Positions 24,890 through 58,180 are shown, numbered from the stretch's first letter. The stretch: 64,000 bases of DNA from Escherichia coli (GCF_022846255.1 NZ_AP025682.1); one strand, 5' to 3'. Numbers and translations: made by a program. The notes: a model not told the origin generated them from the letters alone.

Positions 24890-26315
24890 TAATGCCAGTC
24901 AGTTAAGCAACTGACTGGCTCTTTTTCGGGGCTGTGGGGTATTTCCAGGGCCTCTCCTTTACCACTCTCGGGAAGGCCCTTTCCCTTCTTGTCGGTAATT
25001 TCACAAGTTGTCCCATACTTGCAAGATCGCGCATCAGCTCCGGTATACGTCCCGGTGAAGCGCCCTGCAATGTCATCAGCATTCTCATCACCATTCCACA
25101 TGATTCTGAGAAACTCAGTTGATTCGGCCAGTAACCTTTCAGATGTTCCGCCATTTTAATCATCTGATATCTCACCAGATTATAAGCCAGTAAGACACCC
25201 CACAGCTCTTGCTCCACAAGCTCCGGTTTTTTACTTCTCAGCGTCAGCCTGCTCAGTTGCATCGTCTGTTTTATCTCCCTGTATCCCAGTTCGATTTCCC
25301 AGCGATGACTGTACAGATCCGCCATTTCTCCTCCGGGGAAGCGCATGGCGTCCGTCATCGACGTCAGCAGATGGCAGACTTTTCCTTTGCGCGTCACGGT
25401 CAGCAGGCGGGCTGTCACTTCATTTCCCAGTCCCGGCCACTTTTTTCGTGCCTGCGGGCTGGTTTTCAGCTTCACCAGATGATCGCCTTTACCCAGTTTT
25501 CTGATCTCTTCATATTGCGCTCCCTTTCTGAGAGGTATCATCCAGTGGCGGTGTTCTCCCGCCAGGCTCCAGGCATTTAACAGTCCCAGTGAGTAATAAC
25601 CTTTATCCATTAACGTCAGAGTGTTATCGCCGGTTTGTTCTATAAGTTGCTCAGCAAGCTCATTTTCGCTGTTCTTCATCGTGCCGAAGGCTGCAGCCGT
25701 CAGCAGATGGCTGGTCAGTTCCATCTGGCAGACCATTTTGACCTGCGGGTAGAGCGCCGGGTTCCCGGCATGTGTCTGGCGGGGGAAGGCTGCATCGTTC
25801 TCTGGTGTATCCGGTGTGCGCCAGAACACACCATCGATGGCCAGCAGGGTCAGGCCGCACCAGTGCGGATGCGGCGTGGCGTTATGCCAGAGCTGCGCTG
25901 TTTTCGTGAACACGCGGCGGACAGCCTCACTTCCCAGGCGCTGGCGGGCCTGAATAACGGCACTGGGGGCAACGAAGGGGCGATTGCCCGGCAGCATGAT
26001 GTCCAGGCGATTCACAATCTGGTGAAGAGGTTCTTTACGCTCAAGCGCCATGCCAACAATACACCAGACCATCATTTCGAGGGGAAGACGGCGCTTGCGT
26101 AGCGTTACAGTACCTGATTCGGCAAGGCAACGAGAGATGAGTTCGGGGTCGAGGTAATCCCCCAGAGAAGTCAGTGGGTTACGCAGAGAATCGTAACGGG
26201 ATACCAGATCAAGAGCCTGTCCAATGTGCATAAAAAAATCCGGAAACAAGTGAGCGTTTCCGGATTCTTACACAGCCACTGGATCGGTCAACTGATCCTT
26301 AACTGATCGGCATTA
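24890..26315 (-). mobile_element. IS4 insertion sequence, complete (1426 bp)
   Basis: 18-bp terminal inverted repeats TAATGCCAGTCAGTTAAG (24890-24907) and TAATGCCGATCAGTTAAG (reverse complement of 26298-26315), 16/18 identical; 11-bp flanking direct repeat; single long transposase ORF. Confidence 0.95.
24903..26231 (-). CDS. IS4 transposase
   Basis: 442-aa ORF starting [34 protein letters not shown]…, recognised as the IS4 transposase; start trimmed from the 448-aa track ORF. Confidence 0.93.
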
Positions 26316-26326
26316 CAGCCTAGCTG
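26316..26326. repeat. IS4 target-site duplication, right copy (CAGCCTAGCTG)
   Basis: Identical to 24879-24889. Confidence 0.9.
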
Positions 26327-26340
26327 GGGGTTTTCTGTGC

Positions 26341-26376
26341 ACAAAAATGCCCGCCCCGGCGATCCCGGAGCGGGCA
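26341..26376 (-). terminator. rho-independent terminator of the flgBCDEFGHIJKL/flgKL transcripts
   Basis: Minus-strand hairpin GCCCGCTCCGG-gatcg-CCGGGGCGGGC followed by a T-run, about 40 bp after the flgL stop. Confidence 0.7.
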
Positions 26377-26417
26377 GACAAAACATACCCAGTTTCATGA
26401 TATGTTTTAAAGCGAGC

Positions 26418-32693: not shown

Positions 32694-32720
32694 TTAGTGA
32701 CAAAGTGCATATGTCTTCTT

Positions 32721-32754
<34 letters not shown>

Positions 32755-32846
32755 AAGAGCTCGCAAAATCGATAAATTGCGATTGCCCCCATAGACCCGA
32801 TAAACTTGCGCATAGGGCAACTTATACTTGTCATGTATCCTTTCAA

Positions 32847-49514: not shown

Positions 49515-49539
49515 TTGCCGGATGGCACGCATCCGGCAA
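49515..49539. terminator. hairpin GCCGGATG-gcacg-CATCCGGC between convergent yceI and yceA
   Basis: Palindrome read from sequence. Confidence 0.55.
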
Positions 49540-49545
49540 TGATAT

Positions 49546-51743: not shown

Positions 51744-51914
51744 ATCTTCCATGCTGGATGCTTCAGAATGGCATCCGGCATTACCACAGAAAATCCCCCT
51801 GATTTAGCGATAAAAGCTCTCTGGATTGCGCCCCCTGGAAGTCGGGCGCATAATTAGTGTGCTTATCTTTTCTTCTTATGTTCACCGCGCCTGGCGCACC
51901 AACAGCGGATTGCT

Positions 51915-53141
51915 ATGTCACCCTGTGAAAATGACACCCCTATAAACTGGAAACGAAACCTGATCGTCGCCTGGCTAGGCTGTTTTCTTACCGGTGCCGC
52001 CTTCAGCCTGGTAATGCCCTTCTTACCCCTCTACGTTGAGCAGCTTGGCGTTACCGGCCACTCCGCCCTGAATATGTGGTCCGGTATTGTCTTCAGCATT
52101 ACATTTTTATTTTCGGCCATCGCCTCACCGTTTTGGGGTGGACTCGCCGACCGTAAAGGCCGAAAACTCATGCTATTACGCTCTGCTCTCGGCATGGGCA
52201 TCGTGATGGTGTTGATGGGACTGGCACAAAATATCTGGCAGTTTTTGATACTGCGGGCGCTTCTTGGTTTACTTGGCGGATTTGTCCCCAACGCTAATGC
52301 TCTTATCGCCACACAAGTACCGCGTAATAAAAGCGGCTGGGCGCTGGGTACGCTCTCCACAGGCGGCGTTAGCGGCGCGTTGCTCGGCCCAATGGCTGGC
52401 GGTTTGCTCGCCGATAGCTACGGCTTACGTCCGGTATTCTTTATTACCGCCAGTGTGCTCATACTCTGCTTTTTCGTCACCCTGTTTTGCATCAGAGAAA
52501 AATTCCAGCCGGTCAGCAAAAAAGAGATGCTGCATATGCGGGAAGTGGTGACATCACTTAAAAACCCGAAACTGGTACTCAGCCTGTTTGTCACCACGTT
52601 AATCATCCAGGTGGCGACGGGCTCAATTGCCCCCATTCTGACGCTGTATGTCCGCGAACTGGCGGGTAACGTCAGTAACGTCGCCTTTATCAGTGGCATG
52701 ATCGCCTCGGTGCCAGGCGTGGCGGCTCTGCTAAGTGCACCACGACTCGGCAAACTTGGCGATCGAATCGGCCCCGAAAAGATCCTGATTACGGCGCTGA
52801 TCTTTTCTGTACTGCTGTTGATCCCAATGTCTTACGTTCAGACGCCATTACAACTTGGGATTTTACGTTTTTTGCTCGGTGCCGCCGATGGTGCACTACT
52901 CCCCGCCGTACAGACACTGTTGGTTTACAACTCGAGCAACCAGATCGCCGGGCGTATCTTCAGCTATAACCAATCGTTTCGTGATATTGGCAACGTTACC
53001 GGACCATTGATGGGAGCAGCGATTTCAGCGAACTACGGTTTCAGGGCGGTATTTCTCGTCACCGCTGGCGTAGTGTTATTCAACGCAGTCTATTCATGGA
53101 ACAGTCTACGTCGTCGTCGAATCCCCCAGATATCGAACTGA
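51915..53141 (+). CDS. mdtG: MFS multidrug efflux transporter
   Basis: 408-aa polytopic ORF. Confidence 0.9.
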
Positions 53142-53223
53142 TTTTTCGCCTTTCATACTTGCAAAAGCGGAGAATCAGCTATCCTTTTCCCTGAAACCTC
53201 ATCAACTCAAAGGGAGAATCGTG

Positions 53224-53598
53224 ATGACCATGTACGCAACGCTTGAAGAAGCCATTGACGCTGCACGCGAAGAATTTCTTGCAGACAACCCCGGCATCGA
53301 CGCCGAAAACGCGAATGTGCAACAGTTCAATGCCCAAAAATACGTTTTGCAGGACGGCGACATCATGTGGCAAGTTGAGTTTTTTGCCGACGAAGGAGAA
53401 GAAGGTGAATGTTTACCTATGCTTAGCGGTGAAGCCGCGCAAAGTGTCTTTGACGGCGACTATGATGAGATAGAGATCCGCCAGGAGTGGCAAGATGAGA
53501 ATACATTACATGAATGGGACGAGGGGGAATTTCAGCTTGAGCCACCGCTGGATACCGAGGAAGGACGCACTGCAGCTGATGAGTGGGATGAACGTTAA
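53224..53598 (+). CDS. msyB: acidic protein MsyB
   Basis: 124-aa highly acidic ORF MTMYATLEEAIDAAREEFLADNPGID…. Confidence 0.88.
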   Translation: MTMYATLEEAIDAAREEFLADNPGIDAENANVQQFNAQKYVLQDGDIMWQVEFFADEGEEGECLPMLSGEAAQSVFDGDYDEIEIRQEWQDENTLHEWDEGEFQLEPPLDTEEGRTAADEWDER

Positions 53599-53826
53599 TC
53601 ACTCATACGGGCCATGATGTACGTCGATCGGCAGCAGTAAAGTATCGAAAACCAGGGAGAATGGCAGATCAAGGATCGTGACGTAACGCCAGGCGGAGTC
53701 ACGCACGTCCCATTGCACACCGGGATAATATTGGTTGCCATGCCCCTGCCCCGGTATAGTGCGACTAATGATGCTGCCACAGCCACTCAGCAAGGTCACC
53801 ATTATGCTCACCACAATTAAACGCAT
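53599..53826 (-). CDS. yceK: small lipoprotein YceK
   Basis: 75-aa ORF MRLIVVSIMVTLLSGC… (lipobox). Confidence 0.8.
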   Translation of the reverse strand: MRLIVVSIMVTLLSGCGSIISRTIPGQGHGNQYYPGVQWDVRDSAWRYVTILDLPFSLVFDTLLLPIDVHHGPYE

Positions 53827-53842
53827 TTGATACCTCTTCCGT

Positions 53843-53872
53843 AAAAAATACCGGCATAACGCCGGTATTTTT
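53843..53872. terminator. hairpin ATACCGGC-ataac-GCCGGTAT flanked by A and T runs (bidirectional terminator-like)
   Basis: Palindrome read from sequence between the BIME cluster and yceK. Confidence 0.55.
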
Positions 53873-53888
53873 ATTGGCTCGTTGTTTT

Positions 53889-53990
53889 TGCCGGATGCGG
53901 CGTGAACGCTTTACCCGACCTACAAAATCTTGCAAAATCAATAAATTGCAGGAACGATGTAGGCCTGATAAGCGTAGCGCATCAGGCAAC
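53889..53990. repeat. BIME: two REP units in opposite orientation downstream of opgH
   Basis: GCCGGATGCGGCGTGAACGC…CCTACA and TGTAGGCCTGATAAGCGTAGCGCATCAGGC read from sequence. Confidence 0.7.
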
Positions 53991-53997
53991 TACGTTT

Positions 53998-58180
<4,183 letters not shown>

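Follow-up and report, generated by a model that had tools for sequence, protein, structure and literature searches.

Introduction

The names BIME-1, RIP and RIB, which all stand for REP-IHF-REP elements, go back to the classification of Gilson and Bachellier, to Boccard and Prentki in 1993 and to Oppenheim in 1993. Another arrangement of REP sequences is REP325, a BIME-2-like cluster between yjdM and yjdN and the source of naRNA4, in which six repeats form a tandem array with no IHF linker. Bidirectional intrinsic terminators of Escherichia coli, the subject of work by Ju, Li and Liu in 2019, reportedly consist of a symmetric hairpin that has a GC core and is bordered by an A run and a T run, and are said to serve two transcription units converging on them. 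A BIME-1 occurs as a single copy and combines one y REP with an inversely oriented z1 REP; the L linker that joins them is long and well conserved and often has an IHF site (Ton-Hoang et al., PMC3333891; also PMC2817692). In a BIME-2, the units are arrayed in tandem and the S linker is short (PMC3333891; PMC2817692). In a tandem gene pair, a REP can act as a stabilizer of the upstream message and as a partial, partly Rho-dependent terminator; at REP325 the repeats have been shown both to stabilize the upstream mRNA and to terminate part of the transcription before the downstream gene (bioRxiv 10.64898/2026.03.23.713779). As summarized in PMC12306157, translation is down-regulated by REPs whose distance from the stop codon is below 16 nt (Liang, Rudd & Deutscher 2015).

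Here, we describe the spacer between opgH and yceK in a stretch of 64,000 nucleotides of the E. coli chromosome, referred to as the window, which is oriented in reverse relative to K-12. This spacer is most likely a composite of two unrelated elements, an old intrinsic terminator and a BIME-1, and we give the full explanation developed below a probability of about 0.85. The locus resembles the BIME-1/RIP/RIB family in its inverse Y and Z units, present as a single copy, in its L linker with an IHF consensus and in the number of such elements, about 20 per genome. It departs from a typical BIME-1 in that an additional, partial REP head is found inside the opgH open reading frame (ORF), and in its Y unit, which has two mismatches in the tail. 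With REP325 it shares the position of REP hairpins between co-directional genes, but at opgH-yceK a strong intrinsic terminator comes after the REPs, and the naRNA4 model, with a gathering score of 59.5, gives no more than 31.2 bits at this locus. In contrast to the bidirectional terminators, the hairpin lies beyond yceK and not between the convergent genes, and the msyB transcript would have to cross all of yceK in antisense to reach it. The combination of a BIME-1/RIP element with a conserved intrinsic terminator behind it, which is probably bidirectional, belongs to known biology; the anatomy of the spacer, the family matches of its parts, their pattern of conservation and the order of evolutionary events are directly apparent from the comparisons.

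Genes and Layout of the Locus

The genes opgH (mdoH; 53998-56571) and yceK (53599-53826) are both on the minus strand and flank a spacer of 171 nt (53827-53997). The product of yceK is a 75-aa lipoprotein of the DUF1375 family (PF07119). On the plus strand, mdtG (51915-53141) is followed by msyB (53221-53598), which is convergent with yceK; the stop codons of yceK and msyB, at 53599 and 53598, abut each other, leaving a spacer of zero. Gene names and gene order are identical in the RefSeq annotation of matching genomes and of K-12, and for this stretch the K-12 RefSeq feature table holds coding sequences only, with no official REP or RIP name. The counterpart spacer of K-12 has a length of 172 nt.

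In the sense of the genes (minus strand), the opgH stop codon (TAA, 53998-54000; K-12 position 1113406) is followed by 10 nt, the Z REP, the L linker, the Y REP, a joint, the hairpin, a run of six U, the Shine-Dalgarno sequence and the yceK start codon. The joint between BIME and terminator is A-rich, 17 nt in length (53873-53889; AAAAACAACGAGCCAAT in gene sense), and differs by a 10-nt indel in some Escherichia lineages. The ribosome-binding region of yceK (53824-53842, minus strand) contains the Shine-Dalgarno sequence GGAAGAGG at 53840-53833, and the ATG (53826-53824, minus strand) is located 17 nt downstream of the hairpin.

An earlier note, made on this DNA without database searches, had placed two opposite REP units at 53889-53990 and an A/T-flanked hairpin at 53843-53872. 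Both REP units are found within 1-3 nt of these limits (53890-53923 and 53959-53987), and the hairpin is a perfect 12-bp hairpin at 53844-53872. The statement that these parts occupy the whole spacer is fair, as hairpin and BIME (53844-53987) make up 144 of the 171 nt. The span given for the ensemble, 53843-54020, contains the features named, but its end at 54020 is misplaced and reaches into opgH, where the 11-mer at 54008-54018 is found. The ensemble had furthermore been read as a BIME cluster with a bidirectional hairpin and its repeats as normal for E. coli, which is supported and in keeping with an arrangement that is common to K-12, with which the spacer aligns at 97% identity, and to 5389 of the 5426 complete E. 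coli genomes, in which the locus was found.

A Conserved Hairpin Before yceK

The element next to yceK is a hairpin with the features of an intrinsic terminator on both strands (53844-53872; AAAAATACCGGC / loop / GCCGGTATTTTT). Its two arms (53844-53855 and 53861-53872) are each 12 nt long and 100% complementary, are separated by a loop of 5 nt and form a 12-bp stem that includes a 6-bp G/C-rich core with five G-C pairs. Six A's (53843-53848) flank the hairpin at the left and T5-A-TT flanks it at the right, so that the RNA ends in U6 on the minus strand, which is the direction of opgGH, and in U5-A-UU on the plus strand, the direction of msyB; a GC stem-loop followed by a U run, the sequence signature of an intrinsic terminator, is thus present in either direction. 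The predicted folding energy is -18.9 kcal/mol on the minus strand and -17.9 kcal/mol on the plus strand (z about -4.9), and none of 200 shuffled sequences is as stable.

The age of the hairpin was assessed with yceK loci from 80 species-representative genomes of the Enterobacteriaceae from about 30 genera, which gave an alignment of 80 sequences, 71 of them distinct. All 80 loci have a hairpin and a T run shortly before yceK. Pairing is kept in 95.7% of the alignment cells, compared to 46-58% when the partners are slid against each other, and changes on both sides of a pair occur at four of the 12 stem pairs, in 13 cells against 0.9 in shuffled alignments, a number reached in none of 500 shuffles. 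The loop is free to vary in sequence as well as in length (3-8 nt), while over 90% of the distinct sequences (71 in all) and most genera retain the stem core ATACCGGC...GCCGGTAT; Atlantibacter, Buttiauxella and one Kosakonia deviate in the stem sequence but preserve its pairing. Among these orthologous loci it is hence the structure rather than the sequence that is conserved. The T run after the hairpin counts 6-8 T in essentially every species. This pattern of conservation is the one expected of a functional intrinsic terminator, and the comparison across genera indicates that the hairpin is ancestral, older than the BIME and separate from the repeat. Termination in both directions is plausible from the T runs on both strands and from the position of msyB, which abuts yceK. 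In most other genera no more than 3-4 A precede the stem, which makes reverse termination less certain than forward termination.

The matches of Rfam families STnc430, AgrB, STnc50, Bp1_162 and isrP over the hairpin are far below their gathering scores and were rejected as generic resemblance to terminators. The curated Term-seq table of Adams 2021 contains no RNA 3' ends near the hairpin (K-12 positions 11135xx), which may reflect low expression. A scan of positions 53100-54400 for sigma-70 promoters yielded no promoter-like site on either strand, and no other terminator-like site was found in the same region. The motif TATTTT in the right arm of the hairpin was considered as a promoter of yceK and rejected, since its -35 region is poor and the leader would be too short in Enterobacter.

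The hairpin might be read differently, mainly as an element of the yceK 5' leader, that is an attenuator or a translation control on transcripts that start upstream, rather than as the terminator of opgGH. Its constant vicinity to the yceK start codon (14-60 nt, with a median of 28 nt across genera) and the unusual invariance of the stem core would suit such a role. However, the distance between the opgH stop codon and the hairpin is 12-15 nt in most genera, so that a yceK promoter would have to be located inside opgH, where none is predicted. Moreover, the T run found in essentially every species marks a terminator and not a structure that masks ribosome binding, the Shine-Dalgarno sequence lies outside the hairpin, and the spacing of the hairpin to the ATG is not conserved. 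A leader element is for these reasons quite unlikely, and the intrinsic terminator remains the preferred reading of the hairpin.

The BIME-1 Element in the Spacer

REP units were defined as imperfect palindromes of about 30-40 nt with a head GCC[G/T]GATGCG and a tail CTTATC[C/A]GGCCTAC, and were searched in the whole 64-kb window by a fuzzy regular expression with variable spacing. Exactly four full units match the consensus, namely 53890-53923 (plus strand), 53959-53987 (minus strand), 18479-18512 (plus strand) and 32721-32754 (plus strand), at the places that the earlier note had named. The two units of the opgH-yceK spacer have the properties of REP (PU) sequences: they are palindromes with a head (GCCGGATGCG in Y, GCCTGATGCG in Z) and a tail, they are extragenic, both being contained in the 171-nt spacer, and they occur in many copies per genome, with three more units in the window according to the consensus scan and the repeat search. 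Complementarity between the Y and the Z unit is present and there is no tandem reiteration.

The unit next to opgH is a Z-type REP of 29 nt on the minus strand (53959-53987; GCCTGATGCGCTACGCTTATCAGGCCTAC). It starts 10 nt past the opgH stop codon, matches the REP consensus exactly and is identical in K-12; its RNA hairpin has a predicted energy of -13.9 kcal/mol (z -3.0). The Y-type REP (53890-53923, plus strand; GCCGGATGCGGCGTGAACGCTTTACCCGACCTAC) is inverted relative to the Z unit and matches the consensus apart from its two tail mismatches, and is partly decayed. Its RNA hairpin (-12.6 kcal/mol, z -1.6) is indistinguishable from shuffled sequences and 5.6 kcal/mol weaker than that of the K-12 allele (-18.2 kcal/mol), compared to -20.9 kcal/mol for a canonical Y unit. 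Among the seven differences from K-12 in total, three are inside the Y unit and a fourth is beside it, at the edge of the linker. Going by these folding models, an RNA role of the Y unit may be fading in this strain.

Between the two REPs lies the L linker (53924-53958, 35 nt), which was recognized by a match to the Rfam family ES036 (RF02751). The match extends over 53924-53966 on the plus strand only, covers the full model (1-43) and scores 47.9 bits against a gathering score of 37.6; the consensus of this family corresponds to the BIME-1 L linker and the first bases of the adjoining REP. Over a stretch of 65 nt that takes in the Y REP and the greater part of the linker, the element shares 86% identity with a copy at 32716-32780. 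The linker contains an exact match to the IHF consensus (AATCAATAAATTG, pattern WATCAANNNNTTR; 53936-53948, plus strand). In the 64-kb window, this pattern has six matches against 2.6 expected and is not significant by itself; the match becomes meaningful by its location in the L linker, a segment in which IHF sites are frequent (PMC3333891). By its family, the linker is a predicted IHF binding site.

Megablast places the 107-nt BIME at a median of 20 sites per genome, with matches in 5425 of the 5426 E. coli genomes, whereas the adjacent 53 nt of the opgH end are single-copy in E. coli, with a median of one place per genome. The stretch between the opgH stop codon and the Z REP was tried as a repeated flank motif of BIMEs and rejected, as it is single-copy. 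Because the BIME is repeated genome-wide and repeat families are found within the window, the element is not a product of chance. Its linker identity assigns it to the BIME-1 (RIP/RIB) subtype: one Y and one Z unit are present in inverse orientation as a single copy with a long L linker, as opposed to the multiple tandem y/z2 pairs with short S linkers of a BIME-2, the gyrase-binding type. The Z unit would probably belong to the z1 subtype, as its small size (29 nt) and its association with an L linker imply. Within the transcription unit, the BIME-1 occupies the 3' end, with the opgH stop codon on one side of it and the terminator on the other.

The ES036 match could also be taken to indicate that the linker encodes a free-standing sRNA (ES036, or CssrF) on the plus strand, antisense to the opgH-yceK transcript and with a regulatory role of its own, as a match exceeding the gathering score extends over all 43 nt of the model and occurs on that strand only. 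However, since the ES036 consensus is itself made up of the L linker and the start of the neighboring REP, any BIME-1 copy will match it, and a full-length match denotes a copy of the repeat and is not proof of an sRNA here. The match is also antisense to the sole transcription expected at this place, and the scan of 53100-54400 gave no promoter-like site for it on either strand. The second BIME-1 copy in the window reaches only 14 bits against ES036, and parts of the linker are deleted in other Escherichia lineages. We therefore regard an sRNA as very unlikely, and the linker as a part of the BIME-1.

Other Repeats in the Window

The second element related to BIME-1 is located between flgF and flgG (32719-32802, plus strand). 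Its Y REP (32721-32754) is intact, its Z unit has decayed, and in its L-like linker the IHF core has changed to ATCGA; no REP head was found in the flank on the flgF side. The earlier note had listed this place as a REP at 32721-32754, which correctly describes the Y unit but only a part of the larger BIME-1-like element, which extends to about 32802. The REP sequence that it had reported at 18436-18512 lies between convergent ORFs and resolves into one canonical REP unit (18479-18512) and a separate, perfect REP-head palindrome (18438-18464) that is not a canonical unit, the two spanning 18438-18512 on the plus strand. In a repeat search of the whole window, the BIME falls into two families and the remaining families are coding repeats of curlin or chance pairs; at the level of this search, the proposal that REP sequences are the only extragenic repetitive DNA of the backbone holds.

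Colonization of the Space Between opgH and the Terminator

The distance from the opgH stop codon to the hairpin was measured in 76 loci. It is 25 nt or less, typically 12-15 nt, in 45 loci (among others in Citrobacter, Leclercia, Lelliottia, Kosakonia, Phytobacter and Atlantibacter). A distance of 26-50 nt is found in 15 loci, with one REP of a local type (Enterobacter, Salmonella), and one of 51-70 nt in four loci (C. koseri and some Kluyvera). The remaining 12 loci exceed 70 nt and contain two inverted REPs; they include all Escherichia lineages, and only Escherichia has a distance of 100-125 nt. Outside Escherichia, this two-REP class contains Pseudescherichia, Kluyvera ascorbata, Buttiauxella noackiae and one further genus, each with quite different REP sequences, while the Escherichia lineages carry units of the E. 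coli type. The BIME is thus confined to Escherichia, and in other genera the same slot contains lineage-specific REPs or none.

According to this distribution, the BIME was inserted in an ancestor of Escherichia into a slot of about 13 nt between the opgH stop codon and the terminator. As different REPs occupy one slot across the genera, the slot was colonized several times independently. Within Escherichia the element has also been eroded: the Z unit is lost from one lineage (L002), the linker of another (L005) has been deprived of its IHF portion, and the two REPs of E. albertii are in an advanced state of decay. Erosion in several lineages suggests that the BIME is under weak selection at best.

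The C-Terminal End of OpgH

The last six codons of opgH (54001-54018, minus strand; CCG GAT GCG GCT TCG CAA) encode PDAASQ. This extension is specific to Escherichia, where all OpgH proteins share this end or a variant with one residue changed, and most OpgH proteins from outside the genus end in ...ALRKK or ...ALKAK. The first eleven bases of the extension codons form an 11-mer that resembles a REP head (CCGGATGCGGC in gene sense; 54008-54018, minus strand, inside the opgH ORF) and is 100% complementary over its 11 nt to the head of the Y REP (53891-53901), from which it is separated by 106 nt. The remainder of a REP unit is not recognizable beside the opgH 11-mer, and the flank is not repeated elsewhere in E. 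coli. With about 200 positions out of 4^11, the chance of such an 11-mer near a BIME is estimated at roughly 5e-5, and on account of this low chance the extension most likely arose with the repeat insertion. That the PDAASQ codons and the stop codon are themselves repeat-derived DNA, the insertion having overwritten the original end of opgH, is reasonably likely on the sequences compared, at about even odds. In Salmonella enterica subsp. diarizonae, OpgH has a different extension (...QGRTSSAG), which adjoins a REP of its own.

The 206-nt RNA has a predicted fold of -76 kcal/mol (z -5.65) in which the Y REP head is the partner of the ORF 11-mer, and the tails of the two REPs are paired to each other. 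It has to be considered very improbable indeed that the 11-mer engages the distal Y REP in a long-range helix with a function of its own, which a terminating ribosome melts and which thereby couples opgH translation to the 3' UTR and to read-through into yceK: the helix is a perfect 11-bp complement, appears in both the minimum-free-energy and the centroid structure and has an ORF arm that is 100% conserved in E. coli (with at least 99% identity of the surrounding 53 nt in 5150 of 5425 records), but this conservation is accounted for by the coding sequence, pairing is the expected by-product of two oppositely oriented REP heads, and covariation support is lacking among eight sequences of the Escherichia lineage, in which E. 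whittamii has an uncompensated A to C change in the ORF arm, Escherichia sp. E1V33 retains one of the pairs only as G-U, and E. albertii has three of the 11 pairs broken and one compensated. On these comparisons we treat the helix as a probable by-product. A ribosome-sensitive helix is not likely as the functional half of a combined proposal, and the combination as a whole, in which the opgH end is repeat-derived and the REP head in the ORF also pairs with the Y REP in a ribosome-sensitive helix that links opgH translation, 3'-UTR structure and yceK read-through, is quite improbable.

Expected Roles in Transcription and Translation

The roles of the composite spacer, consisting of a BIME-1 and a terminator, can be proposed by analogy with the families of its parts, which applies to termination, mRNA stabilization, IHF binding and the effect on translation alike. 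Most transcripts of opgGH would end at the hairpin, 17 nt upstream of the start codon of yceK. A literature search on the transcription of yceK found none. With no predicted promoter and only 14-60 nt between the hairpin and the start codon, yceK would probably be expressed mainly from read-through transcripts.

For K-12, a region of Rho-dependent termination has been mapped at 1114048 on the plus strand, antisense to msyB (Adams 2021, supplementary file 2), and yceK-msyB is listed as a convergent excludon (PMC12288877), from which it follows that transcription crosses yceK in both directions. As msyB and yceK have no spacer between them, msyB transcripts must cross yceK in antisense, and in view of the missing spacer and of the scan that found no other terminator-like site, the plus-strand hairpin with its U5-A-UU tail is the first plausible stop for mdtG-msyB. 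The same hairpin, read from the other strand, would thus probably stop the mdtG-msyB transcripts after their antisense passage of yceK.

The REP units may contribute at several levels. The two REP hairpins, or alternatively a long helix between the Z and the Y unit, would protect the opgGH mRNA against 3'-to-5' decay, and the hairpins may add partial termination before yceK. The Z unit, at 10 nt past the stop codon, would belong to the class that is reported to lower the translation of the upstream gene. At the DNA level, the L linker may bind IHF; an IHF ChIP study names neither REPs nor BIMEs in its text.

Implications

REPs, BIME-1/RIP elements and bidirectional terminators have been described in E. 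coli for decades, and the value of the locus for discovery is accordingly small. Its modest value is the comparative picture, although the view across species changes nothing in the overall picture. In Escherichia, and apparently in Salmonella too, a REP event probably changed the C-terminus of OpgH, which illustrates that REPs may occasionally rewrite the ends of coding sequences. The slot of about 13 nt between opgH and the terminator is a hotspot for REP insertion and illustrates the way in which these repeats become established behind genes. The alleles of Escherichia, with the element intact, the Z unit lost, the IHF site lost or the whole fully decayed, provide a natural series for the effects of a BIME-1 on its host transcript.

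REP elements between opgH and yceK

In the yceK loci from 80 Enterobacteriaceae species-representative genomes (L002-L081), the slot of about 13 nt between the opgH stop codon and the terminator hairpin, in the stretch some 60-190 nt before locus position 1501, has been occupied independently by lineage-specific REPs. A single REP lies there in Enterobacter, Salmonella and C. koseri, and two inverted REPs are present in Escherichia, Pseudescherichia, Kluyvera ascorbata and Buttiauxella noackiae; the slot is without a REP in 45 of 76 loci.

When 250 nt of the window were aligned with the K-12 locus, three of the seven differences fell within the Y REP of the opgH-yceK spacer (53890-53923) and a fourth lay directly beside it, at the edge of the linker. 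These differences weaken the Y REP hairpin from -18.2 kcal/mol in K-12 to -12.6 kcal/mol in the window. The type strain ATCC 11775 carries a Y REP allele identical to that of the window.

All Escherichia lineages sampled have six additional residues at the OpgH C-terminus, PDAASQ or a one-residue variant of it, encoded in the window at 54001-54018 on the minus strand (loci L002-L010 vs L004, L011, L035 and others), and the OpgH proteins of the other sampled Enterobacteriaceae are without a six-residue extension of the PDAASQ type. The REP head CCGGATGCGGC is located inside these extra opgH codons and is a perfect complement of the Y REP head at 53891-53901. The extension of Salmonella OpgH is different (...QGRTSSAG, about 1400-1450 of the locus from Salmonella enterica subsp. 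diarizonae, L042); there, the opgH stop codon is within GGATAAGG and adjoins the Salmonella-type REP GGTCTGATGGCGCAACGCTTATCAGGCCTGG.

On the other side of yceK (minus strand), the stop codon abuts that of the convergent msyB (plus strand) at 53598/53599 with zero spacer, and therefore either transcript must end in or past the opposite gene. The pair has been catalogued as a convergent excludon (PMC12288877).

Other intergenic elements in the window

The rne-flgL spacer, 195 bp in K-12, where it contains the sRNA FlgO, measures about 3.16 kb in the window (23259-26417). Its cargo comprises a TacA-like antitoxin and GNAT toxin, an IS4 transposase and a Y1 transposase of the IS200C type, the last with an Rfam STnc490 match at 24772-24895. 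Of 5426 complete E. coli genomes, 685 carry the TacA-like/GNAT pair, but not one of them has 80% or more of the full segment at a single site.

A second BIME-1-like element, between flgF and flgG (32719-32802), is oriented with respect to its host genes as the opgH-yceK BIME is, and the upstream stop codon adjoins its Z unit. Its Y REP is intact, the IHF core is mutated (ATCGA) and the Z unit is decayed; ES036 (RF02751), the Rfam family of the BIME-1 L linker, matches it with only 14 bits. Short palindromes, perfect or near-perfect, with the REP head GCCGGATG...CATCCGGC and without the REP tail, are located at yceF/rluC (18438-18464), at yceI/yceA (49520-49545) and after lpxL (51764-51790), between convergent or consecutive genes, and look like terminator-type hairpins derived from REP heads.
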